NCBI GenBank assembly: GCA_035362335.1
Contig: DAOSDL010000009.1
Span: 208 to 64,207, forward strand
From: Bacteroidota bacterium
GTDB taxonomy: Bacteria; Bacteroidota; Ignavibacteria; SZUA-365
DNA length: 64,000 nucleotides
Direction: 5' to 3'
Position 1 is the first letter of the stretch. Each line of letters starts with the position of its first letter. The position numbers and the translations under genes are program-made. Shown one piece after another: positions 850-63,222 of the stretch. The notes beneath the pieces were generated by a model that had not been told where the DNA came from, made no database searches, and saw only the letters and a list, made by a program, of their open reading frames with translations.

Positions 850-1201
850 CCGGATTTCGTCATTTCAGCACCCGTGACACGGGAGGAAGCACAATTTCCG
901 CCTCGCTGCAGAAAGCTCATTGATTCGCGAAACGAGAACAACTCCCTCTCGTCACGTTGCGTCTCTGCTTCTCTGCGACGTTGCGTTCCATTCTTCTGAA
1001 GTCAGAAGGGAATGCAACGAAAAGATGCCAAGGCGCAATGACAGAAAGTAATGGCTATTCTCACGAGCCCTGTCGTTTTGTGAAATAGACGCCTACGCCC
1101 TGATATCGCTATTGCAGCACCCAGATCACAAGCGGAGCCCCCGTAAGTCATTGAAAACAATGATTCACATTTGCAATCCTGAAAAGCGTGGCGAAATCAG
1201 G
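850..1201. repeat. MITE-like element copy A (~350 bp, with ~90-bp internal insertion/partial duplication). Termini CCGGATTTCGTCA...GCGAAATCAGG.
   Basis: Near-identical to 2369-2624 over ~250 bp. Terminal inverted repeats are CCTGATTTCGCCA / TGGCGAAATCAGG. Contains stem-loop CATTCTTCTGAagTCAGAAGGGAATG. Confidence 0.6.
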
Positions 1202-1245
1202 AATATCGGCACGGGATGCTCGCGTCTGGTCTTGGACTTGGTCAG

Positions 1246-2360
1246 GGCTATTCACTGAATATGTCGACCGGAACAGTACGACCTCCATGACGGGATCAAT
1301 TTCGCGTGAGCGAAACCGATGACGTCGGCGCGGAGGCCAAGGATCGGGATTTGGCTATTCAGTGAATATGCCAGCTGATGCCGCTGGTAAGGGCCGAGGT
1401 TCCGGGCTTGGCTATTCAGTGAACATGCCAGCTGATGCCGCTGGCGAGGGTCGAGGTCCTGGGTTTGGCTATTCAGTGAATATGCCAGCTGATGCCGCTG
1501 GCGAGAGCCGAGATCCCGGGCTTGGCTATTCAGTGAACAACCCACGCCCTGAGCGGAAAGGCGGAGCGGGCGGGCCAGGATTAGGCTATTCACTGAATGA
1601 CCCACGCTCGGCGCGGAAAGACGGAGCGGGCGACGGGGATTTGGCTATTCAGTGAACATGCCAGCCGATGCCGCTGGCGAGGGTCGAGGTCCCGGGCCTG
1701 GCTATTCAGTGAACAACCCACGCCCTGAGCGGAAAGGCGGAGCGGGCGGGCCAGGATTTGGCTATTCAGTGAACATGCCAGCCGATGCCGCTGGTAAGGG
1801 TCGAGGTCCCGGGCTTGGCTATTCAGTGAACATGCCAGCCGATGCCGCTGGCGAAGGTCGATGTCCCGAGCTTGGCTATTCAGTGAACAACCCACGCCCT
1901 GAGCGGAAGGACGGAGCGGGCGGGCCAGGATTTGGCTATTCACTGAATGACCCACGCTCGGCGCGGAAGGCGGAGCTGTCGGGCCAGGATTTGGCTATTC
2001 ACTGAATGACCCACGCTCGGCGCGGAAGGCGGAGCTGTCGGCGGGGATTTGGCTATTCAGTGAATATGCCAGCCGATGCCGCTGGCGAGGGTCGAGGTCC
2101 CGGGCTTGGCTATTCAGTGAACAACCCACGCTCAGCGCGGAAAGGCGGAGCGGGCGGGCCAGGATTTGGCTATTCAGTGAACATGCCAGCCGATGCCGCT
2201 GGCGAGGGCCGAGGTCCCGGGCTTGGCTATTCAGTGAACAACCCACGCCCTGAGCGGAAGGCGGAGCGGGCGGCGGGGATTTGGCTATTCAGTGAATATG
2301 TCGGATGGGGATACTCGCGCCTGATCTCGGATTCGGACTTGGCTATTCACTGAATATGTC
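1246..2360. repeat. Tandem array 1: ~19 copies of a 56-60-bp unit with conserved 22-bp core GGNTTGGCTATTCA(G/C)TGAA(C/T)A and recurrent GC-rich ~36-bp 'spacers'
   Basis: Core occurrences at ~1246, 1351, 1408, 1464 ... 2281, 2341. Spacers fall into 3 families. Overlapping ORFs on both strands are frame-broken, so the array is non-coding. Confidence 0.85.
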
Positions 2361-2368
2361 TGGCCGAA

Positions 2369-2624
2369 CCTGATTTCGCCATTGCAGCACCCGAGACACG
2401 GGAGGAAGCACAATTTCCTCCTCGCAGCAGAAAGCTCATTGATTCTCGAAACGAGAACAACTCCCTCGCGTCACGTTGCGTCTCTGCTTCTCTGCGACGT
2501 TGCGTTCCATTCTTCTGAAATCAGAAGGGAATGCGACGAAACGACGCCAAGGCGCAATGACGGAAATAAGTCATTGATAACAATGATTCACATTGGCAAT
2601 CCCGAAAATCGTGGTGAAGTCAGG
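2369..2624. repeat. MITE-like element copy B (256 bp) with 13-bp terminal inverted repeats
   Basis: Starts CCTGATTTCGCCATTGCAGCACCCG and ends GTGGTGAAGTCAGG (reverse complement of the start). Direct-orientation duplicate of 850-1201. Confidence 0.6.
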
Positions 2625-3012
2625 CCACGGCGTCCACCACGGCGCGTAGCGTTTCCTCGACTTCGTCGGGAATGTCGCCGAGTCCCGCGTCGGGCATGAT
2701 GGCATTCATGGCCGAGGGACGCATGAGCTGCACCATGGTATGCTCGCCATCGGCGTATACCACAATGCGACACGGCAGCATCATGCCCACCGGCTTGAAG
2801 GCGCTGATGGCCTGAAAGGCGTAACGTGCGTTACACACCTCGATGATGCTGTAGGAGGGAATGTCGAAACCCTTGTCCCTGAGTGTGGCCTGCACGTCAT
2901 GCACGTGCAGTGTGCGGAAACCGCGCTCGAGAGCCGCGTCCTGCACCGCATTCACCACATCCGCAAAGGGCTTGGAAGAGGTCTTGCTGTATTCGAGTTG
3001 CGAAAGATCCAT
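2620..3012 (-). CDS. DUF302-family protein
   Basis: 130 aa with the size and pattern of DUF302 proteins. The stop codon lies inside the terminal repeat of MITE copy B. Confidence 0.6.
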   Translation of the reverse strand: MDLSQLEYSKTSSKPFADVVNAVQDAALERGFRTLHVHDVQATLRDKGFDIPSYSIIEVCNARYAFQAISAFKPVGMMLPCRIVVYADGEHTMVQLMRPSAMNAIMPDAGLGDIPDEVEETLRAVVDAVA

Positions 3013-5559: not shown

Positions 5560-8500
5560 CTATTTGGCCAGCACCATCGAAATCATGCGTACATACGATC
5601 CGCTCCGCAGGCGCGTGATATACACGCCGCTCGGCAAGGCGCTGCCGTCGAAATGTACACGATGGGTTCCTTCTTGCAGTGGTCCGTCATGCAGCACTCG
5701 TACGACGCGGCCATGCATATCCAACACTTCCAGCACGCCCGGCATTCCCGTCAAGGCATCGGAAACCACGTACTCGATCACCGTGACCGGGTTGAAGGGA
5801 TTCGGTGCATTTTGTCGGAGGAACAGGTCGCTTTTCAACGGCTCGATGCAATCACCCGACACGGTGATCAGCCCGTCGCTGTACACCACGGCGATGCCCG
5901 GTCCGAAGTCCGGAGTACCCGCGAAGAGCACCGGGTAACGGAACACCCCGAAGGCGCCGTCCCTGCCCTTTTGCGGCAACAGCAGGCATCGCAGCGAGAA
6001 CAACACGCCGTCATCAACAATGGGCGTACCCGAAGCGCCATCGATTGTCACACCGGTTGCGGTTTCGTTCATGGCCAACGGCCAACCCGCGGCGAGCGCG
6101 CCTTCCTTCTTCACTTCCAGAATGCGGACGGCGGCGGGGTCGACGTCGATGCGCATGGACATGCGCCGCAGCAGCGCGCGTCGGGGATTGCTGAATCGCA
6201 CCGGCACTGTCACCTCGCGTCCCATCATTCCGACGATATCCTGCGGCATGCTCAACAGCACCACCAGCAAACGCGACTGCACGAGTATGGACTGCGCGCA
6301 TTCCACTGAGCTGGTCTGATCGCTATTCACGATACAGCGAATCGTACTCAGTACATCGTCATCGCCGCCCGAGGGAACGCAGGTGAAGGAGAGCACGCCC
6401 GTGGCGCCCGGCTGCAAGTCCACACCGAGCACTTTGACCGGGGTTTCTCCGGTATTCAACGTGATATTCGCCGGCAGCATGAGCATGCCCGAAATACCTG
6501 TCAACGTGCGATTGCCATTGTTGTGAATACGCACCGTTACCGTAAATGGCGAGGGCACGTACGTATCGCTGCCGGCATCGTAACGGATGGTGTCGGGAAT
6601 GTCGCAATCGATAGCCAGCGAGGCGCTGTCCACGATCGGCGGGTGATGGAGCAGAATATCGCTGCCGCATTGCCGAGACGAGGCGGCGTCGGCGGTGACG
6701 GTGACGACGGGACGCAGTATTGTGCTGGCGCTTTGCGGCGCCGCCCGCAACAGCCATCCGATGGTGGCTATTTCACCGGGAGCGAGATCCACGCCCAGTG
6801 GCTTGGTGTAGCTTTCGCCCGCTTCCACCGATGCGATGGAGGGAAGCGAGAGCGTCGCGCGGATACCGCGCAGCGTGGTCGATCCGGTATTTTGAATTTC
6901 CACGGTGAATGAAAACGGTGCGGGGCGATAGCCCTGCGAGGCGCCAATGAACCAGAGTGTATCGGGCGCATCACAGCGTACGACAAAACCCGTGGGCTGC
7001 GGCGGAGCCGGCATCAGCGTCACCGACGCGGTACACTGCTGCAAATCGCCGCCAGCATAGGCGCGGACACGGAATATACGCGACCGCGGTACTGTGGCGG
7101 TATCGACCAGCATGCGCACATGCCATATCGCATTCGCGGAGGTACCGGCAGCGATGTTCCGCAGCACGATATCCAATTGCTCGCCGCTTTCGAGCTGTGC
7201 CCCTTGCGGCAGTTGGAGCGTTGCCACAACGGAGTCCAGCATGACGGGAGAAGGATTGCCAATCCGCGCCGACACCGTCAGCAGCGGATACAATCCAGAT
7301 TGCTCATCCACGCGCAGTGTATCCATATCGAGCGCGCATTGCACATCGAAGCTCGCCTCTTCCAGCGCGGGAATGCGCACCATGGTACAACAACGCTCGG
7401 GCGCGAGCCCGCGGGCGGCGCTCTCTATACAGACTGCTACAGAATCGACCTGCATGCCGCGTTGTACAACTGCTTTCCATGTGGCGGTGAACTGCGCTCC
7501 CGGAGCCAGAACGCCGACATCGATCACGGGAAGGGGCGTCTCGGCCGTAAGCCGGAGACGCTGCGGCACTTCGATACGCAGATTGCCCTGATAAGCGGAA
7601 GCGCTGCCCACATTGCGCAGCACCGCGCTGATCACCACGGTGTCGTCCTCGCCAGCCTGTTTGAGCAGTTCGCAACTCAGGCGCAACTGCGGCATGCGGG
7701 CGGCGGGGATGTGAATTTCCACCGGGCAGGGTGCGGTCTGTTGCAGAGTTTTTCCCTTGGCCTTCACCTGCACGAGCACCGTATCCATGCGCGCAACCGA
7801 GCGCGGCGTGGCGCGCAGCCACCAGCGCGCATTGCCCGTCTCGCCCACGGCGAGTGTGGATGGCAGCAGCATTTTCGCGGCCTGCTCGCCGGTGGCCATG
7901 GTCATATCGGGAGGCGGCAGGATTTCCGCGACCACCGAATCGGCGAGAGCAGTACCGATATTACGCACATCCACCGACACCAGGAAGGGCTCGGGCATGT
8001 ACCCGGCCAGCGAGTCCACGAAGTGCAGGGAGTCGGGTCCGGCACAGGCGAGTTCGAGCACGGGTCCTTTCACCGCTTCGATAAACATGCGCTTGGCACA
8101 CAAGGTCCCGCCACCGTTGGCCGCGAACACCGTGATTTTCACCGTGTCGTGCCTCGCATTGTCGCGATCGAGTACGCGCAAACGGAAGGAGCCTTCCACC
8201 GAAGCACCGGCGGCGAGAGAATCGCTCAACAATTTGAACGGTTGGTCGCTGCCGTCGATGGACAAATCCTCGCCCTGAAGCAACGCGGCGGTCACACCCT
8301 TGGCTGGAGTTGTGCCGTTGTTGGTCACACGCACGCGCACCGTCATGGGATTCGGATCGTATGCGCCGTCGATATACCGCACCGTATCCGGACCCTCCAC
8401 TGTGCAGGCGAGCGAGGGAATGGCATTGTCCACAATCACATCGAGCGGCGTGCAGCACTGCGCACCGGCAAAATTTTCGGCGGTGACATTCACGCAAATG

Positions 8501-10830
8501 GAAGAGGGCAATACCGGCTGGCCGCGCAACTCCACCACCCACATCACCACACCGCTATCGCCCGGGAGAATCACCGCACCGTTCGGAAAATCCTTCGACG
8601 CAAAATCCGACGAACCCAGTCGGGCAAAGGATGGCAACTGAATATGCGCACGCGCGCCCGTCATGTTCAGGGCCGACACGTTGCGCACCGTAGTGCTGAT
8701 AAACAGATACGCCGGATCGTAATTCCCCGAGCCGTCGTCGAAGCGCACCACGCGCGTATCTGTGCACAGCATGCGCGCACGCACAGGCGAGGCGGTAATG
8801 AACAGCTCCTGACAACATTCAGCGGTATCGCCTCCCACGGCAACCTTGATACAGAACCGCAACAGGTCCGATGTCGTACGCTCGAGCGGACGCACATACC
8901 ACAGCACGTAGCCGGAGTCGTTGCGCGTCAGCGTACCGGGTGCGACGAAGGTGTTGACCGGCGTGGTACTATCCACGACGAATCCCTGCGGCACATGAAT
9001 CCACGCCGCCACATCCCGCGCTGCGAGGTCACTGTGATTTGTCACGAGCACGCGCACGGGGAAGCGATCGGGAACGAAGGAATTCAGACTGTCACTCCAC
9101 TCGATGCGATTGATAAAATCGCATTCCACGCGGAGCTTCGGATAGGCCTTCTCCACCAGCACTTCGGTGCAGCACCGCGTGATCTGCCCGCTGTCGGGTT
9201 GCACCTCCACGCAAATGGAGAGGCGTCGCTCCCTGTCCGCCGGCAGCATGCGCAAATCGAAGGAGGCGTATTCGGTGGCACCCACCGGGAGTTCGGTGGC
9301 ACTGAGATAAATTTCGTTTGACGGTGAAATCAATTCCACGCCATCAGGGACGTCGATACGCACGCGGGTATTTTTCGCGGTAAGCACACCCGGATTGCGC
9401 ACGGTGACAGAGACGCGGAAGTATCCATTATTGTAGCGTCCCTCGTTGCGATCCCAGGTGATGCGCAAGGTGTCCTCGCACACCGCGCTGAGTTTCGGGC
9501 GTTGAAGAATGGCGACGTTGGTGGTTCGGGCCAGTAGACGGAGGCATTCCACCGTTGTTTTATCGAGGAAAAACGCCGGATACACGAAGCTGGTATCTTT
9601 CGTCAGCGTGCCGGGAGTGGAGTAGCGCAGCACCAGCAGAGTATCGCGATTTCCGCTGAGTGCAAGCGGTCCGGTAAGTTCGCAGATCACCGAATCCACC
9701 ACCCGACCAAAAATTGCAGTCATCTTCTCGGCCACATACCCTGTGGTCACAATACCCTTGTACTGCAGCGGTGCGCGTTCGAGTACTTTGAAGTTGAGAT
9801 GATTCAGCGTGGCACCCGCCGGTCCTTCGATCATCACGGGTATGCGCATCTCGCCGCCGGCATAAGCGAAGGTGGAGTCGAATGACACTTTGATGTCCGG
9901 TACCGAAGGATGATGCGGCGTACGGAAGCGTACCTCGGCGGTATCGGCCACACCACAGGCCTCGGCGATCACCCGCAACTCGCGCATCGATCCATCCGGA
10001 CAATCGGAGGTGTAATTCATGCGGCAATCGTTTGCACCGCCGGTAATCAGGGACATGATCGAAGTGAAGGCCGGCACGATATCGTCCGGATGATTGAGTT
10101 CGATGTACATGCCACCAGTTTGGTCCGCGATCATGCGCATCACATCGAGATCGGCGTTGTCGTCGACATAAGAAAGGCCGAGGCAATACACCGGAATCCC
10201 GGTACTTACTGATCGCAGAATCACGTCCTGGGCAGTAGCGATACTGTTGTTGTCTCCTCCGTCGGAGAGCAACACCACTGCCTTGATTGGATTACTCGCA
10301 TTGGCCGCCACTTCGTTGATGCCCGCGATGACGGCGTCGAACATCGTGGTGACGCCGTAGGGATAAATGTTGCGAATGGCGTCGAACAGCAGGGCGATGT
10401 TGGAGGTCATGCCCTGATGCATGGTGACGTTGTCCCCGAAACTGAAAATCGCCCCTTCGTCGCTGCCGGTTGTGTGATGCTGAAACATTTCCACAAACTT
10501 CCATGCGGCGTCGCGTATGCGAAAGATGCTGGTGCCCGCCACCGAGCCACTGCGATCCAGCACCAGAGCCACGGACATGGGTACAGTTTGCTGCGGGCAG
10601 GTCAAGGATTGCAGCGTGCGCAGTTGACCGTTTTCATAGATGCGCACAGTGAGCTGATTGCCGATGCCGACTTGCTGCCCGCCGCAAAAAGCGCGCACGT
10701 GCACATTGACGGAGGGAAAATTCTGCGTATCCACATGGAGGATGCGGACCTCATTGCCGATTTGTGCCTCGACGAGCACAGGCGGCAGGAACAGCAGGAG
10801 GAGTACGACATACGGGAGCAATCGACTCAT
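5560..10830 (-). CDS. Giant secreted adhesin-like protein: N-terminal VWA domain, ~9 DUF11/CARDB-like repeats, C-terminal T9SS sorting domain
   Basis: Signal peptide MSRLLPYVVLLLLFLPPVLVEAQ. VWA motif VALVLDRSGSV. Repeats show V(R/T)N.G...A....LP.G and end in CC/C motifs. C-terminus SGVYITRLRSGSYVRMISMVLAK. Confidence 0.8.
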   Translation of the reverse strand: MSRLLPYVVLLLLFLPPVLVEAQIGNEVRILHVDTQNFPSVNVHVRAFCGGQQVGIGNQLTVRIYENGQLRTLQSLTCPQQTVPMSVALVLDRSGSVAGTSIFRIRDAAWKFVEMFQHHTTGSDEGAIFSFGDNVTMHQGMTSNIALLFDAIRNIYPYGVTTMFDAVIAGINEVAANASNPIKAVVLLSDGGDNNSIATAQDVILRSVSTGIPVYCLGLSYVDDNADLDVMRMIADQTGGMYIELNHPDDIVPAFTSIMSLITGGANDCRMNYTSDCPDGSMRELRVIAEACGVADTAEVRFRTPHHPSVPDIKVSFDSTFAYAGGEMRIPVMIEGPAGATLNHLNFKVLERAPLQYKGIVTTGYVAEKMTAIFGRVVDSVICELTGPLALSGNRDTLLVLRYSTPGTLTKDTSFVYPAFFLDKTTVECLRLLARTTNVAILQRPKLSAVCEDTLRITWDRNEGRYNNGYFRVSVTVRNPGVLTAKNTRVRIDVPDGVELISPSNEIYLSATELPVGATEYASFDLRMLPADRERRLSICVEVQPDSGQITRCCTEVLVEKAYPKLRVECDFINRIEWSDSLNSFVPDRFPVRVLVTNHSDLAARDVAAWIHVPQGFVVDSTTPVNTFVAPGTLTRNDSGYVLWYVRPLERTTSDLLRFCIKVAVGGDTAECCQELFITASPVRARMLCTDTRVVRFDDGSGNYDPAYLFISTTVRNVSALNMTGARAHIQLPSFARLGSSDFASKDFPNGAVILPGDSGVVMWVVELRGQPVLPSSICVNVTAENFAGAQCCTPLDVIVDNAIPSLACTVEGPDTVRYIDGAYDPNPMTVRVRVTNNGTTPAKGVTAALLQGEDLSIDGSDQPFKLLSDSLAAGASVEGSFRLRVLDRDNARHDTVKITVFAANGGGTLCAKRMFIEAVKGPVLELACAGPDSLHFVDSLAGYMPEPFLVSVDVRNIGTALADSVVAEILPPPDMTMATGEQAAKMLLPSTLAVGETGNARWWLRATPRSVARMDTVLVQVKAKGKTLQQTAPCPVEIHIPAARMPQLRLSCELLKQAGEDDTVVISAVLRNVGSASAYQGNLRIEVPQRLRLTAETPLPVIDVGVLAPGAQFTATWKAVVQRGMQVDSVAVCIESAARGLAPERCCTMVRIPALEEASFDVQCALDMDTLRVDEQSGLYPLLTVSARIGNPSPVMLDSVVATLQLPQGAQLESGEQLDIVLRNIAAGTSANAIWHVRMLVDTATVPRSRIFRVRAYAGGDLQQCTASVTLMPAPPQPTGFVVRCDAPDTLWFIGASQGYRPAPFSFTVEIQNTGSTTLRGIRATLSLPSIASVEAGESYTKPLGVDLAPGEIATIGWLLRAAPQSASTILRPVVTVTADAASSRQCGSDILLHHPPIVDSASLAIDCDIPDTIRYDAGSDTYVPSPFTVTVRIHNNGNRTLTGISGMLMLPANITLNTGETPVKVLGVDLQPGATGVLSFTCVPSGGDDDVLSTIRCIVNSDQTSSVECAQSILVQSRLLVVLLSMPQDIVGMMGREVTVPVRFSNPRRALLRRMSMRIDVDPAAVRILEVKKEGALAAGWPLAMNETATGVTIDGASGTPIVDDGVLFSLRCLLLPQKGRDGAFGVFRYPVLFAGTPDFGPGIAVVYSDGLITVSGDCIEPLKSDLFLRQNAPNPFNPVTVIEYVVSDALTGMPGVLEVLDMHGRVVRVLHDGPLQEGTHRVHFDGSALPSGVYITRLRSGSYVRMISMVLAK

Positions 10831-10887
10831 ACCTTCCTCGAAGAGGTTAATCGACAACAGAATCAGGTGTACAAGGCCGGGCGTTGG

Positions 10888-12243: not shown

Positions 12244-12574
12244 CTCTCACATCGCCTATAACGTTTCATGGTAAGAAAACTCCCCTCAATATGCAATGGA
12301 CATCGTGCAGCCCGAAGCCGCCCGGTCCGCCGGGCCGCACGGCATGCCGCGAAGATTCGGTGACTCGTAATGACGATACCATCGGATGGATATCGCTCGT
12401 GAGGCCGTTCGCGCGTCATGCGCACCGCCTCGCCGTTTCACAACCACGAGGTGCGATCGACCCAGCCTTCCCCAGGTGGCAAGCCCTGAGCGCATACAGA
12501 AGTGCATTGCGGGATTCGAACGTCCTGGATATGTTGCACGTTCCATTTCACTTTCATCCATTAGTTGGGAGCTA

Positions 12575-13399
12575 ATGATGCAACTTGAGATACCCTATCG
12601 GCACGCGCGCGCGCGCGGCCACAACTACTCCGAACCCGGCACCTACTGCCTGCGACTCGAAACCGCAGGCGAAGAGGCGTTGTTCGGCGAGGACGGCGAC
12701 GGCGGGCTGCGGCTCAACGCCTTCGCGGAAATCGCCTTCGAGAAGCTCGCCCTCGCCGTGCAGCGTTACCCCTGTCTGCGCCTGGACGCAGCGCGCTTCA
12801 CGCCCGACGCGCTTGAAATCCTTGTGACCATTACCGAGTACCGCAATCACAAGGCGGAGAATCCGGAGCTGTGGGGAAATCGCCTTCGCGCGCGTCGTCT
12901 GATGACCATCCCCATGTTCGTGGGCTTTCTGAAAATGAACAGCGCCCGAGCCATCAACACCGCGCGCGGCACACGTGGACGCGCCGTGTGGAAACGGCGT
13001 TACCACGATTGCATCGTCGCGGAGGCTGGAGAAATCCAGAATATCCGCTGCGCATTCAACGCTGCGATGCAGCGTACGCAGCTCACGCGCGACAAGGCGA
13101 ATCCCTCGGTGCGCAATCTGCGCACCGTGCTGAACGAGGCCTTTGCGCTGTTCGGTGAGGATCACGCCCGGGCACCGCGGTCCGAGGCGCAGCCAACCTC
13201 CGGATTGCTCATGCTCGGCCGCGCGGTGTTCCTGCGAGACACCGTACTGAGATCGCCATCCATGGTTTCGGCATCGTCTCGAACTGGTAAGGGGAAAAAG
13301 AAGCGATCCCCCACGGTAACGGAAATGGTGGACGCCTCGCTGGCGATGCTGCACACCGTGGATCCGGAGGCGATGTTGCTATCGATGGCGCCGGGGTAG
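12575..13399 (+). CDS. IS200/IS605-like (RAYT-like) Y1-transposase-fold protein with degenerate HuH motif. Possibly domesticated.
   Basis: Aligns by eye to IS200 TnpA. GTYCLRLETAG..ALFG matches the YHIVF..AFYG strand. PDALEILVTI replaces the HuH segment (both His lost). FVGFLKMNSARAIN and AVWKRRYHDCIV match FMGYLKGKSSLMLY and FWCRGYYVDTV (catalytic-Tyr region kept). RBS GGAG lies upstream of the ATG at 12575. Confidence 0.5.
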   Translation: MMQLEIPYRHARARGHNYSEPGTYCLRLETAGEEALFGEDGDGGLRLNAFAEIAFEKLALAVQRYPCLRLDAARFTPDALEILVTITEYRNHKAENPELWGNRLRARRLMTIPMFVGFLKMNSARAINTARGTRGRAVWKRRYHDCIVAEAGEIQNIRCAFNAAMQRTQLTRDKANPSVRNLRTVLNEAFALFGEDHARAPRSEAQPTSGLLMLGRAVFLRDTVLRSPSMVSASSRTGKGKKKRSPTVTEMVDASLAMLHTVDPEAMLLSMAPG

Positions 13400-13664
13400 T
13401 GCATCAGGATATAGGACGGGATGGTCCGCGATAGGCCGTCGCATCCGCTTGCTGTAATCGATTGATTTCCGAGTGAGGTCCGAAGCGCCCCGCGGCGATT
13501 CGCGGGAGAGCTATGCGCGGAGGCGGAGGATTTGGGACGTGGGAGTGGTTTTTCCGAGGTTGTCGCGGACGTTCAGCGATTTCGGAGCTTACGGTATTGT
13601 GAAATTCGGGGAAATCGGCTGGGGGGCGGGGCGGTCGAGGGCTGAGATTGCGGGTTCGGGGTGG

Positions 13665-14270
13665 GGATTTGGCTATTCACTGAATAACCCATGCCCGGAT
13701 CGGGAGGCGGCGCGGTCGGCCCGGATTTGGCTATTCACTGAATATCTCAGCCGGGCCGGGGTGCACGGAGACCAGGGTCTGGATTTGGCTATTCACTGAA
13801 TAACCCTGGCCTTGCGACGGGAGGTGGCGCTGTCGGTCCGGATTTGGCTATTCACTGAATAACCCTGGCCTTTGGACGGGAGATGGCGCTGTCGGTCCGG
13901 ATTTGGCTATTCACTGAATAACCCTGGCCTTGGGAGGGGAGGCGGCGCGGTCGGCCCGGATTTGGCTATTCACTGAATATCTCAGCCGGGCCGGGGTGCA
14001 CGGAGACCAGGGTCTGGATTTGGCTATTCACTGAATAACCCTGGCCTTGCGACGGGAGGTGGCGCTGTCGGTCCGGATTTGGCTATTCACTGAATCACCC
14101 ACGCCCTGAGCGGAAGGCTGTGCGGTCGACCCGGATTTGGCTATTCACTCAATATCTCAGCCGGACCGGGGTGCGCGGAGACCAGGGTCTGGATTTGGCT
14201 ATTCACTGAATATGTCAGCTGGCGATGCCCGCGCCGAGTCCTGGTTCCGAGCTTGGCTATTCACTGAATC
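13665..14270. repeat. Tandem array 2: 11 copies of a 58-59-bp unit with core GGATTTGGCTATTCACTGAAT(A/C) and recurrent ~37-bp spacers
   Basis: Core starts at 13669, 13727, 13785, 13844, 13903, 13962, 14020, 14079, 14137, 14195, 14254. Spacer families recur (S2=S6~S9; S3~S4~S5~S7). Confidence 0.85.
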
Positions 14271-14315
14271 ACCCACGCCCTGAGAAGGGTCACGCCTCAC
14301 CCGCGCTTCCACGAT

Positions 14316-14360
14316 TCATCTGTGCTAATCTGTGTAAAATCTGTGCAATCTGTGGTTTTG
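14316..14360. promoter_or_regulatory. Four helically phased ATCTGTG heptamers (iteron-like putative protein-binding array)
   Basis: tcATCTGTGctaATCTGTGtaaaATCTGTGcaATCTGTGg with 9-11-bp spacing. Confidence 0.3.
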
Positions 14361-14525
14361 AAACTCTGCTGATCCGCTCCGACAGTAATCATGGCACACG
14401 CACCATGTTCATTCTCCCGGGTGTGACGAAGGAACATGAAAGACTGTGGTTCCCCCCCCGCAATCCCAACCACGGTCATTGCGCCTTTGCGGCAACGCGT
14501 CTCATTCCCCGCTGCGCTCCCGCAA

Positions 14526-56811: not shown

Positions 56812-57378
56812 ATGAACACACTCGAAGCCAACAGCATACTCCCCGCGCCGCTCGGCGGCTTTCAACATATCGCGCCGGCCGAGGCCCGCAAACGCGCAGC
56901 CCGCATTCGCCTGCTGCTCACCGACAACGATGGCGTGCTGACCGACACCGGCGTGTACTACGGTCCCGACGGCGAACTGGTGAAGCGCTACAGCATACGC
57001 GACGGCATGGGCGTCGAGCGGCTTAAGCTCATCGGCGTGGAAACCGGCATCATCACCGGCGAGAAATCGCTCAATCTCAAACGTCGCGCCGAAAAGCTCC
57101 GCCTCGCGCATCTGTACCTCGGCATCAAGGACAAGACCGCCACCATCGAGGCCATTCGCCGCGCGGCGAATTTGTCCATGGATGAAATCGCCTATATCGG
57201 CGACGATGTGAACGATCTCCGCGCCATGGATCTGATCGGCGAGCGCGGACTGACCGCGGCTCCCGCCGACGCCATGCCGCAGGTGCGCGCCATCGCCCAG
57301 TACCTCTGCGCCTGGAATGGCGGCGCGGGCGCGTTCCGCGATTTCGCCGAGGCGCTGATTACCTTGCGGGGGAGGTGA
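56812..57378 (+). CDS. HAD-family KdsC/YrbI-like phosphatase (Kdo-8-P / KDN-9-P phosphatase type)
   Basis: LLLTDNDGVLTD motif I. IGDDVNDL motif. Confidence 0.8.
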   Translation: MNTLEANSILPAPLGGFQHIAPAEARKRAARIRLLLTDNDGVLTDTGVYYGPDGELVKRYSIRDGMGVERLKLIGVETGIITGEKSLNLKRRAEKLRLAHLYLGIKDKTATIEAIRRAANLSMDEIAYIGDDVNDLRAMDLIGERGLTAAPADAMPQVRAIAQYLCAWNGGAGAFRDFAEALITLRGR

Positions 57379-57425
57379 ATCGGTAATCGTGAATCGTGAA
57401 TCGTTAATCGTTAATCGTGAAATGT
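57377..57425. repeat. Tandem octamer repeat (AATCGTKA)x6 immediately after the KdsC-like stop
   Basis: gaatcggtaatcgtgaatcgtgaatcgttaatcgttaatcgtgaaatg. Confidence 0.5.
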
Positions 57426-61950: not shown

Positions 61951-63222
61951 TTATTGAGCGAGCGGTTCTTGTATTCCATGAAATACTAGCGACACGATCC
62001 CACCAGAAATTCGTCGCATTCTGGCTAAAACAAAGACATGCCCATCTGAAATATTTATTTGCTTAAATGTCAGATAATCGTTTTCCAATCTCGCAACTTG
62101 TGTGCTTTTCATTCCTTCTACTCGGAATATCTCTCCATCTTCTGTCATGGCAAATAGGTTTGAGTATTGATCCTCAGCCATGGACACTACTGAACTGCCT
62201 TCCCTCAAATCACATATCTCGGAGATCTGGTCGTTAATTACCTGATATATACTGTTACCACCAAATATATATACACTGCCTGAACTACCAAGATAGAATC
62301 GTACATGTTCGCCATTTGATCCTAAGCGCTCATTAAGATTGATACTAAGTATCAACTTATTGAAATATTTATATACATTCCGTAAGCTTCTTCCAGTTGA
62401 CCTCTCGTAGGTTGACACAATCGCATATGTTTCGCTTCGCTCTGTGATTAGAACATCAGATATATAATGTCTCGTTCCTCCTTCGGAATATTTTGCAACG
62501 GGCATTACTACGCTCTCCCAATTAACTCCATTTGAAAGATAAATTGCACCTGAATCCGCACCTAATACGATCTCCCCTTTCGAATTTATAGCACCAGAAT
62601 AAATATGATTGTTCATCTTTACTAAGTTATCAGATCTGTTATTTGTTGCTAAAAAGCCAGTCTCAGTGAGGCTAATTCGTTCTCCTGCTAAGAAATACTC
62701 TGAATTTAATCTTCCAAACACTGAGCTCGGGCTCAGGTCGGATGTGCTCTGGTATCTTTGCTCGATCATTATTGCTCGCCAGGAAGTACCATTATATTCC
62801 CAAACATCCCCACCACGAGAAGAGCAAAAACCCGCAACCACAATCAACGACGGATCATGCCCCCAAAGCTCAGTAAGATCTGTTTGATACGTACCTTGGA
62901 AACTGAGAGTATCACACTCCCATTCCAACTTATCGAATATGCTGATTTTGGCGGTCGATTGAGAAATATCGTCGTTACACCCTCCTATCAATATTCCAAT
63001 CAGAAGACAAGTCACCTGAATAGCATGACGACTCGTTCGCGATACTTTAGTATCAAATAAACGTATTTTGTCCAAAATATATCGAACCCATCTCAACTCT
63101 CGAAGGACTTGCCGGTCAACTTCGTTGATCATATCCTGAATAGCTAAAGCGTATTCTCCGTTGATCAGCCACAGTTTCCGCGAAAAGTTCTGCTTGGACA
63201 TCTTAGACGCTCCACCCGTCAT
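61951..63222 (-). CDS. Hypothetical protein in low-GC island, possibly a lipoprotein with beta-propeller-like repeats
   Basis: Internal ..VTCLLIGILIGGCNDD.. lipobox-like segment. Repeated GxxxxIYxSxxG/W beta-strand-like motifs. ~40% GC vs ~65% surroundings. Confidence 0.4.
   Translation of the reverse strand: MTGGASKMSKQNFSRKLWLINGEYALAIQDMINEVDRQVLRELRWVRYILDKIRLFDTKVSRTSRHAIQVTCLLIGILIGGCNDDISQSTAKISIFDKLEWECDTLSFQGTYQTDLTELWGHDPSLIVVAGFCSSRGGDVWEYNGTSWRAIMIEQRYQSTSDLSPSSVFGRLNSEYFLAGERISLTETGFLATNNRSDNLVKMNNHIYSGAINSKGEIVLGADSGAIYLSNGVNWESVVMPVAKYSEGGTRHYISDVLITERSETYAIVSTYERSTGRSLRNVYKYFNKLILSINLNERLGSNGEHVRFYLGSSGSVYIFGGNSIYQVINDQISEICDLREGSSVVSMAEDQYSNLFAMTEDGEIFRVEGMKSTQVARLENDYLTFKQINISDGHVFVLARMRRISGGIVSLVFHGIQEPLAQ

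Follow-up and report, generated by a model that had tools for sequence, protein, structure and literature searches.

A tandem palindrome array behind the gene of an inactive RAYT homologue in a Bacteroidota genome is probably a REP-type cluster

Two tandem arrays of short palindromic units lie in the window, our term for the whole 64,000-nucleotide stretch of Bacteroidota DNA analyzed here. They raise the questions of what the second of them, array 2, is, whether it serves the protein encoded upstream, and how it is related to array 1. A sequence-only reading had described array 2 as 11 units with a 58-59-bp period, and the unit starts and TRF output agree with this count, period and location. 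It had further proposed that the two arrays carry the same palindrome with a flipped center and that they exchange sequence with each other. Our analysis suggests a different reading. Array 2 is probably a cluster of REP-derived units that belongs to an inactive homologue of REP-associated tyrosine transposases (RAYT), here called dRAYT. The features are collected in Table 1.

Table 1. Coordinates of the arrays and associated features in the window
Feature	Coordinates	Strand	Description
el200, copy upstream of array 1	850..1201	+	~265-bp hairpin-rich element; split into 850-1047 and 1144-1201
Degenerate solo unit of array 1	1240-1262		
Array 1	1347..2392	+	Class II; 18 units of 57-60 bp; array-2 core, mostly with center G; no adjacent gene
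el200, copy downstream of array 1	2360..2625	+	Contiguous; directly after the last array 1 unit
Putative promoter and 5' UTR of the dRAYT gene	12496..12577	+	Conserved; alignment of 10 paralogous upstream regions
dRAYT gene	12578..13399	+	273 aa; predicted Y1/HUH transposase fold, RAYT clade; catalytic residues replaced; ~110-aa C-terminal tail
Leader	13400..13664	+	265 bp, G-rich; GC skew +0.36; 11 runs of at least 3 G
Array 2	13665..14306	+	11 probably REP-derived units of 58-59 bp; near-invariant core GGATTTGGCTATTCACTGAAT plus GC-rich variable 36-38 bp; last unit truncated and degenerate
Trailer with (ATCTGTG)x4	14306..14420	+	Separate dispersed ~115-bp repeat, not a constant part of the module; motifs at 14318-14354

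The units of array 2 are extragenic and arranged head to tail, starting at 13665, 13723, 13781, 13840, 13899, 13958, 14016, 14075, 14133, 14191 and 14249. TRF gave a basic period of 59, with further higher-order ones at 117, 175 and 235 bp. All 31 matches to the 16-mer TTGGCTATTCASTGAA in the window (at most two mismatches) are located within array 2 or 1240-2392, compared to 0.04 expected from dinucleotide shuffles of the window. No single or paired units were found outside the arrays in the 64-kb window. Bases 5-22 of the unit are almost invariant save the center, and the other ~36 nt are variable with few fixed positions. The 5' flank GGATTTGG is conserved and kept in a single orientation. 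The unit at 14133 reads CACTCAA.

The center base is C in all 11 units of array 2. In array 1 it is G, except in copies 1, 6, 12, 13 and 19, exactly the copies to which the sequence-only reading had assigned the array-2 form. That reading took the center to be the only difference between the two cores. The G versus C center is correct, but the last base differs as well (GAAT versus mostly GAAC). Similarly, G and C are the alternatives in the two window arrays, but all four bases occur at the center when all related arrays are considered. The proposed flipping of the center has no meaning, as GGATTTGG keeps its orientation and the center takes any of the four bases. By sequence comparison, the center is the middle or loop base of the apparently REP-derived palindrome and is not under constraint.

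Folding energies were calculated for single-stranded units. A typical array 2 unit (AACCC type) has a folding energy of -2.1 kcal/mol (z -0.4), and the AGCCC variant among the window units has -6.4 kcal/mol (z -3.7). Whole units fold no better than shuffles. The same was found for single-strand folding of units, the whole array and several leaders, none of which was consistently better than shuffles. Two ideas, one long G-rich/C-rich hairpin and strongly structured units, were dropped on this ground. Two other readings were also rejected: a sigma-54 or sigma-70 promoter in the core, on inspection and by a computed check, and protein-coding repeats, because the mixed periods of 57-60 bp are not multiples of three. 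Rfam gave no match in the whole window at the gathering threshold, and only chance microRNA-like matches in 700-2800 at E<=1.

The protein encoded upstream of array 2 is identical to NCBI HOJ03594.1 (PK916_06295) from a 'Bacteroidota bacterium' MAG. Locus tags identify at least four dRAYT paralogues in this PK916_ MAG, and dRAYT sequences form 15 clusters at 90% identity. Direct searches of Pfam and PDB sequences, with the protein or a close-family profile, gave nothing. The sole NCBIfam match, to REP_Tyr_transpos, is weak (E 0.059). The homology is visible only by exhaustive profile search, structure prediction and profile-profile comparison. The exhaustive profile search yielded 3397 relatives, many of which match Pfam Y1_Tnp or NCBIfam REP_Tyr_transpos; for relatives of 170-200 aa, the matches to Pfam Y1_Tnp or the NCBIfam REP-associated tyrosine transposase have E values of 1e-13 to 1e-21. 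BLAST alignments between dRAYT and HUH-intact relatives show 30-38% identity over ~150 aa (E 1e-16 to 1e-26). A phmmer search of PDB sequences with one intact relative, P0044, gave nothing, and PADLOC found no defense-system match for dRAYT.

Structure prediction is in line with these matches. The AlphaFold (AF2) model of dRAYT is confident for residues 1-165 and disordered beyond ~188, and the C-terminal tail has low confidence. In Foldseek, each of the top 30 PDB matches to this model is either an IS200/IS605 TnpA or 4er8, the RAYT-REP complex of E. coli, with E 2e-5 and TM 0.6-0.68 for ISDra2 and IS608 TnpA. The hhalign comparison with 17 intact relatives gave a probability of 99.93% (E 2e-35). 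Judged from the profiles and the predicted fold, dRAYT is clearly a RAYT homologue.

The catalytic signature of class-2 RAYTs consists of HuH and Y---NP, the Asn being a metal ligand (PMC6006769). In the gap-free hhalign alignment, PNHVH in the 17 intact relatives is replaced by PDALE in dRAYT, and YIxNNP by AFNAAM. None of the four catalytic residues is therefore retained: the two histidines of HUH, the catalytic tyrosine and the asparagine that binds the metal have all been replaced. The loss extends over the subfamily: other members lack both histidines, and A, Q, E, R or M occupies the tyrosine column. The subfamily comprises 13 clusters with E < 1e-30 in a library clustered at 50% identity. 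Its members share the extra C-terminal tail, which carries the motifs LLGRAxFL and GPGRIFLS. Among seven dRAYT paralogues with dS of 0.17-0.74, dN/dS is 0.18 (0.13 for the fold domain and 0.27 for the tail). These substitution patterns show the copies to be under purifying selection and not pseudogenes. No HUH-intact Y1 gene was found among the sequences examined from this population genome. As far as our searches went, the literature contains no description of a dead-RAYT subfamily with a conserved leader-palindrome architecture.

The dRAYT gene, the leader and the array constitute a module at 12496-14306. In the window, it is preceded by thymidine phosphorylase and followed by a convergent PepSY-like gene and then the nuo operon. 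The population genome contains at least 7-8 diverged copies of the module, in seven distinct flanking contexts. With tblastn, an intact paralogue of 271-274 aa (80-96% identity) was found upstream of every array of this type, designated class I; class II arrays are not preceded by a RAYT homologue. In an alignment of nine class I loci, the homology covers the gene's 3' end and the whole ~265-bp leader without interruption and reaches into the first unit. On the left, it begins ~82 bp before the ATG, and the sequences further upstream are unrelated in the 10 paralogous regions aligned. The left edge carries TTG-N20-TATGTTGC, which resembles a Bacteroidota -33/-7-like promoter and may function as one. 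On the right, the homology stops at the array end and the trailers differ among modules. The gene-distal units are the most degenerate. Copies of the ~115-bp ATCTGTG repeat are also found in L122, L132, L134 and L147, and the repeat does not stand behind every array.

The leader is a constrained part of the module. Its divergence between paralogous modules is 0.24, half of the synonymous-site divergence (dS 0.48), and this comparison shows purifying selection on the leader sequence. No intrinsic terminator was found between the dRAYT gene and array 2. The leader alignment gave a covariation term of +0.91, which provides no covariation support for an RNA structure. In seven of the nine dRAYT loci tabulated, a leader of 224-297 nt with a skew of +0.31 to +0.55 and 8-17 G-runs is located before the palindrome, and a C-rich stretch after it. 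Leaders of L157, L159, L160, L163, L168, L170 and the window are conserved in length and composition and not in sequence. The G-richness might favor formation of a G-quadruplex or an R-loop. In two groups of loci from different assemblies (L160/L161/L162 and L163/L164/L165), an identical dRAYT gene and downstream DNA are found in three different upstream contexts, either because the left edge of the gene has really been rearranged or because the assemblies are chimeric at a repeated gene.

Three other regions of the window stand out. The minus strand of 5560-10857 encodes a 1765-aa protein with VWA and CARDB/DUF11-type repeats. The protein also matches Por_Secre_tail (type IX secretion sorting), weakly and below the cutoff, which fits an origin in the Bacteroidota/FCB group. 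An intergenic tandem repeat of GTGAATC/GTTAATC (~6.7 copies) at 57375-57421 looks unrelated to the arrays. The region 62001-63000 has a GC content of 0.40, compared to the window average of ~0.60, and may be foreign or non-coding DNA.

Comparison with a catalytically intact family member connects the array core to REPs. The nearest such relative (P0029, locus L172; 38% identity) carries a transposase annotation. GTAG-tagged REPs, GTAGGGCGGATTCATGAATCCGCCCTAC, lie on both sides of it: a tandem of three upstream, spaced by 116-117 bp, and two downstream, 56 bp apart. The array core is the apex of this REP. A joint alignment revealed the consensus GGCnGATTCATGAATCGCCC common to the L172 REPs, the sites of distant dRAYT genes and the window units. 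In the window lineage, a 1-nt insertion at the palindrome center forms the position that varies between G, C, A and T. Among the sites aligned, GTAG is present only in the REPs of L172. It is absent from the window units, which have the invariant GGATTTGG at the equivalent position. As single-stranded DNA, the REP of the intact relative folds with -13.7 kcal/mol (z -7.3). From this alignment, the window units are best explained as worn-down GTAG-class REPs whose outer stem has decayed.

The palindrome is also found at distant members of the dead subfamily. In ten such loci, the gene is followed by 1 to 31 copies of the same palindrome or of one with a single mismatch, and the apex ATTCATGAAT recurs there together with the adjoining arms. 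L163 and L168 contain ATTCATGAAT once, and L160 contains it once with one mismatch. Two palindrome copies 46 bp apart are present in L170, where GGATTTGGGTGATTCATGAATCGCCCAC is visibly the window unit. L171 has 5.7 copies of a 35-bp unit with one mismatch in the core, and L166 has 31.5 copies of a 20-bp unit. Gene and array, or gene and palindrome, are linked in every dRAYT locus examined, down to ~30% protein identity. In L157 and L159, the palindrome occurs once, in the leader, and is followed by unrelated arrays of 58-bp (x14) and 140-bp units, indicating that array formation is not strictly tied to the palindrome. The palindrome-free units there (L157 6230-7063; L159 4493-4948 and 6329-6925) measure 58 bp (x14), 114 bp (x4, upstream) and 140 bp (x4.3, downstream). 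The 58-bp period thus recurs with a different sequence in L157, and the REP spacing of 116-117 bp at the intact relative is twice 58.

Arrays with this core are numerous. A metagenome scan with the core 20-mer identified 35 loci, many with 3-10 exact matches, and related metagenome contigs indicate at least 10 arrays per population genome; the single assemblies OFEK01 and Ga0208462 each contain ~10 different arrays. The re-analyzed arrays have 3-15 units, with periods mostly of 56-60 bp and some of 47-49, 53-54 or 63 bp. Many lack an adjacent gene, as array 1 does. A scan of genome contigs with a 15-mer, too short a query, returned chance single matches only, and a scan of viral contigs returned four single matches and no arrays. 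In L119 (3773-4550), L146 and L149 (1519-1950), units of 53/54/63 bp alternate as a strict dimer of the core variants GGATTTGGCTATTCAGTGAAT and CGACGTGGCTATTCAATGAAT, and the flanks of these dimer arrays are unlike those of class I and class II.

Array 1 has a leader different from the class I type of array 2. The GC-rich hairpin in class II 'A' units is mostly invariant with one double change, and is therefore uninformative. Array 1 is bracketed by a dispersed element, el200, which consists of two segments separable by ~95 bp. The element brackets most other gene-less arrays as well, and is found in both orientations at 15 or more related loci. It matches no Rfam family, contains no ORF and is not similar to the dRAYT module.

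The variable segments, or spacers, allowed us to follow how the arrays evolve. Units 2 and 6 of array 2 are identical, as are units 3 and 7 (100%). The order E-D-D-D-E-D-B-E of spacer families described earlier is correct from unit 2 onward. So is the presence of a family common to both arrays: the CACCCACGCCCTGAG type occurs in the B units of array 1 and, in array 2, in unit 8 (14075) and in the last, truncated unit (14249). The conclusion drawn from this family, a common origin with ongoing unequal exchange between the two loci, holds in part. A shared origin and the duplication and deletion of units are supported, but ongoing exchange between the two loci is not. In a nearest-neighbor analysis of the spacers, we found no preferential exchange between arrays 1 and 2. 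Each array 2 unit has its closest counterpart either among the other units of array 2 or in one of the paralogous arrays found elsewhere in the genome. Unit 1 is similar to the first unit of L142 (0.91), and first units are conserved between paralogous modules. Unit 8 is closer to unit 3 of L132 (0.94) and unit 4 of L130 (0.88) than to the best array 1 unit (0.82). Arrays 1 and 2 are not a private pair; they belong to different classes and have different leaders.

Units are gained and lost locally, in blocks of 2-4. The copy of array 2 in ENA ERZ1756056 is identical to that in the window. The copy in JGI 3300009707 has 7 units compared to 11, with the identical units 3 and 7 marking the exact ends of the missing block; one paralogous array has 10 and 3 units in two samples. 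Short-read collapse could also produce both of these differences. The higher-order periods, the block deletion and the nearest-neighbor result together point to slippage or unequal recombination within arrays, on top of an ancient duplication of modules. Essentially no spacer matches were found outside the arrays in ~484 kb of related contigs, so the spacers give no target or protospacer signal.

Taken together, we favor, with moderate confidence, the reading that array 2 is a REP/BIME-type cluster of its cognate inactive RAYT homologue, a putative multivalent binding platform that grows by local tandem duplication. The 58-bp unit would be a worn-down GTAG-class REP with the core GGATTTGG-CTATTCA-s-TGAATAg-CCCAy, tandemly amplified together with ~37 bp of GC-rich flank. 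Canonical RAYTs recognize a 5' tag and a hairpin. The invariant parts of the window units are the 5' flank and the apex, the outer stem having decayed. We infer that dRAYT lost DNA cutting and joining and kept recognition of the REP-derived core. With cutting lost and recognition kept, the array would be a multivalent binding platform next to the protein's own gene, and the sequence evidence suggests that it probably serves dRAYT in this way. Changes in array length would come from slippage during replication or from unequal recombination of identical units, and not from transposition. Most likely, the array would control the module and the surrounding region in cis, at the nucleoprotein level or at the 3' end. 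Gene-less arrays such as array 1 could provide further dRAYT binding sites in trans.

Several observations speak against the binding platform, namely the missing GTAG, the weak hairpins, the unrelated arrays in L157 and L159 and the gene-less arrays. The weak hairpin of the typical unit (-2.1 compared to -13.7 kcal/mol) may mean that classical hairpin recognition has been lost or that duplex DNA is recognized instead.

The units could alternatively be active REP/REPIN-like non-autonomous elements that are mobilized in trans by an intact RAYT elsewhere, the dRAYT copies being bystanders or regulators. Published models of RAYT-mediated REP array formation (PMC3733652) describe such a process, and both the many gene-less arrays and the near-identical unit types in different arrays, such as unit 8 and unit 3 of L132, are in line with it. 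However, sharing of units is also explained by module duplication, as the conserved first units of paralogous arrays indicate. The window contains no single or paired units outside the arrays and the related contigs essentially no spacer matches. The eroded REP stems and the absence of a HUH-intact Y1 gene from the sequences examined also argue against mobilization, which we regard as unlikely.

We give still less credence to a domesticated system in which a nuclease-dead HUH protein would serve regulation or defense by way of its arrays, whose REP-derived handles would act either as DNA or, once transcribed, as RNA. If it existed, the variable 37-nt segments would carry the specificity, and the system would be the Y1-transposase-side counterpart of dead-TnpB regulators or of Cas6-type repeat binding.

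Another alternative is a transcribed CRISPR-like or guide-RNA-like array. The leader would drive transcription, the core would be a handle bound by the ferredoxin/RRM-like fold of dRAYT, and the 37 nt would be guides or decoys. The layout of gene, conserved leader and co-oriented array with fixed unit length and degenerate distal units fits this scheme. So do the lack of a terminator between gene and array, a leader more conserved than synonymous sites, and the persistence of leader length and G-richness across distant homologues. The spacers, in contrast, fall into few redundant families with identical copies inside one array and are unmatched elsewhere. Rfam and PADLOC gave no match, the leader lacks covariation support, the folding of the units does not surpass that of shuffles, and in several homologues the palindrome stands alone, with no array. 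We consider such an array improbable.

A plain minisatellite without a protein partner, with the two window arrays homogenized by unequal exchange and the gene present by coincidence, would account for the higher-order repeats and for the copy-number differences between metagenomes. The linkage of gene to array or palindrome in every locus examined, down to ~30% protein identity, contradicts it. The core is moreover homologous to the REP of an intact RAYT, and the nearest-neighbor analysis revealed no preferential exchange between the two arrays, which makes this reading very improbable. Finally, the tandem palindrome units directly downstream of a gene are reminiscent of the sopB-sopC layout, but a centromere-like or iteron array (sopC- or parC-like) for partition or replication of an integrated element is barely credible given the lack of ParA/ParB/Rep-type genes in the immediate flanks, the presence of at least 10 arrays per chromosome and the Y1 transposase fold predicted for the adjacent protein.

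The REP/BIME-type reading can be compared with known systems. Like REP/BIMEs and their RAYTs (class 2 Y1, GTAG REPs), array 2 is associated with a homologous protein, and its core shows homology to the GTAG REP, in both the apex and the arms. The arrays are extragenic, between convergent genes, and the REPs of the intact relative are already in tandem. Unlike RAYTs, dRAYT lacks HUH, the tyrosine and the asparagine ligand and has the extra ~110-aa C-terminal tail. It is also present in at least 7-8 diverged and selectively maintained copies, whereas RAYTs are usually single copy per genome (PMC5581495). The sites differ as well. Those of the window type are located only downstream, behind a conserved G-rich leader, and have lost GTAG and most of the stem. 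They form long arrays of one orientation, with no dispersed singletons in the sequence examined.

Compared to IS200/IS605 elements, the module shares the predicted Y1 fold, the multi-copy gene and a defined left boundary. It differs in that dRAYT lacks the catalytic residues and its copies are not near-identical but old, with dS reaching 0.74, and evolve under purifying selection. The module has no left-end or right-end hairpins and no tnpB, and its boundaries are the putative promoter on the left and the array end on the right. CRISPR loci resemble it in several respects: a leader precedes regular repeats whose core is partly palindromic, the distal end is degenerate, and an associated gene lies next to the array. 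Unlike CRISPR, the array has redundant spacer families with no matches elsewhere, and repeat and spacer are duplicated together as blocks. No cas genes are present among the genes flanking array 2 (dRAYT, thymidine phosphorylase, PepSY-like, nuo operon).

Two further systems offer partial parallels. TldR is a nuclease-dead regulator derived from TnpB. By analogy, dRAYT may likewise represent a transposon-encoded nuclease family that lost its catalytic residues and is maintained by selection beside a cognate non-coding element, but the protein families are different and there is no evidence of an RNA guide or repression for dRAYT. The F plasmid centromere sopC is an array of 12 x 43 bp. It shares with array 2 the tandem palindrome units directly downstream of a presumed binding-protein gene. 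Array 2, however, is chromosomal and one of many such loci, and is accompanied by no partition ATPase and by a protein of unrelated fold.

REPs reiterated in tandem with co-amplified flanking DNA have been described (PMC3733652), and the array as such is therefore ordinary. The unusual part is the inactive, multi-copy and selectively maintained partner gene. In published surveys, tree building was restricted to sequences with intact HuH and Tyr (PMC6006769). The subfamily described here has lost all four catalytic residues but is under purifying selection, and the position of its cognate palindrome, behind a G-rich leader, is fixed. In one lineage, the dead RAYT has multiplied into many gene-plus-array modules. 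Array 2 is thus probably best viewed as a REP-type cluster, and neither as a CRISPR-like array nor as one of a pair of loci exchanging sequence.

REP-RAYT is a textbook case of a domesticated bacterial transposase, and its cellular role is still debated. If recognition of the REP-derived core was kept as we propose, DNA recognition is separated from cleavage in the dRAYT family. The family may then provide a natural experiment on whether binding to REPs is enough for a cellular function.
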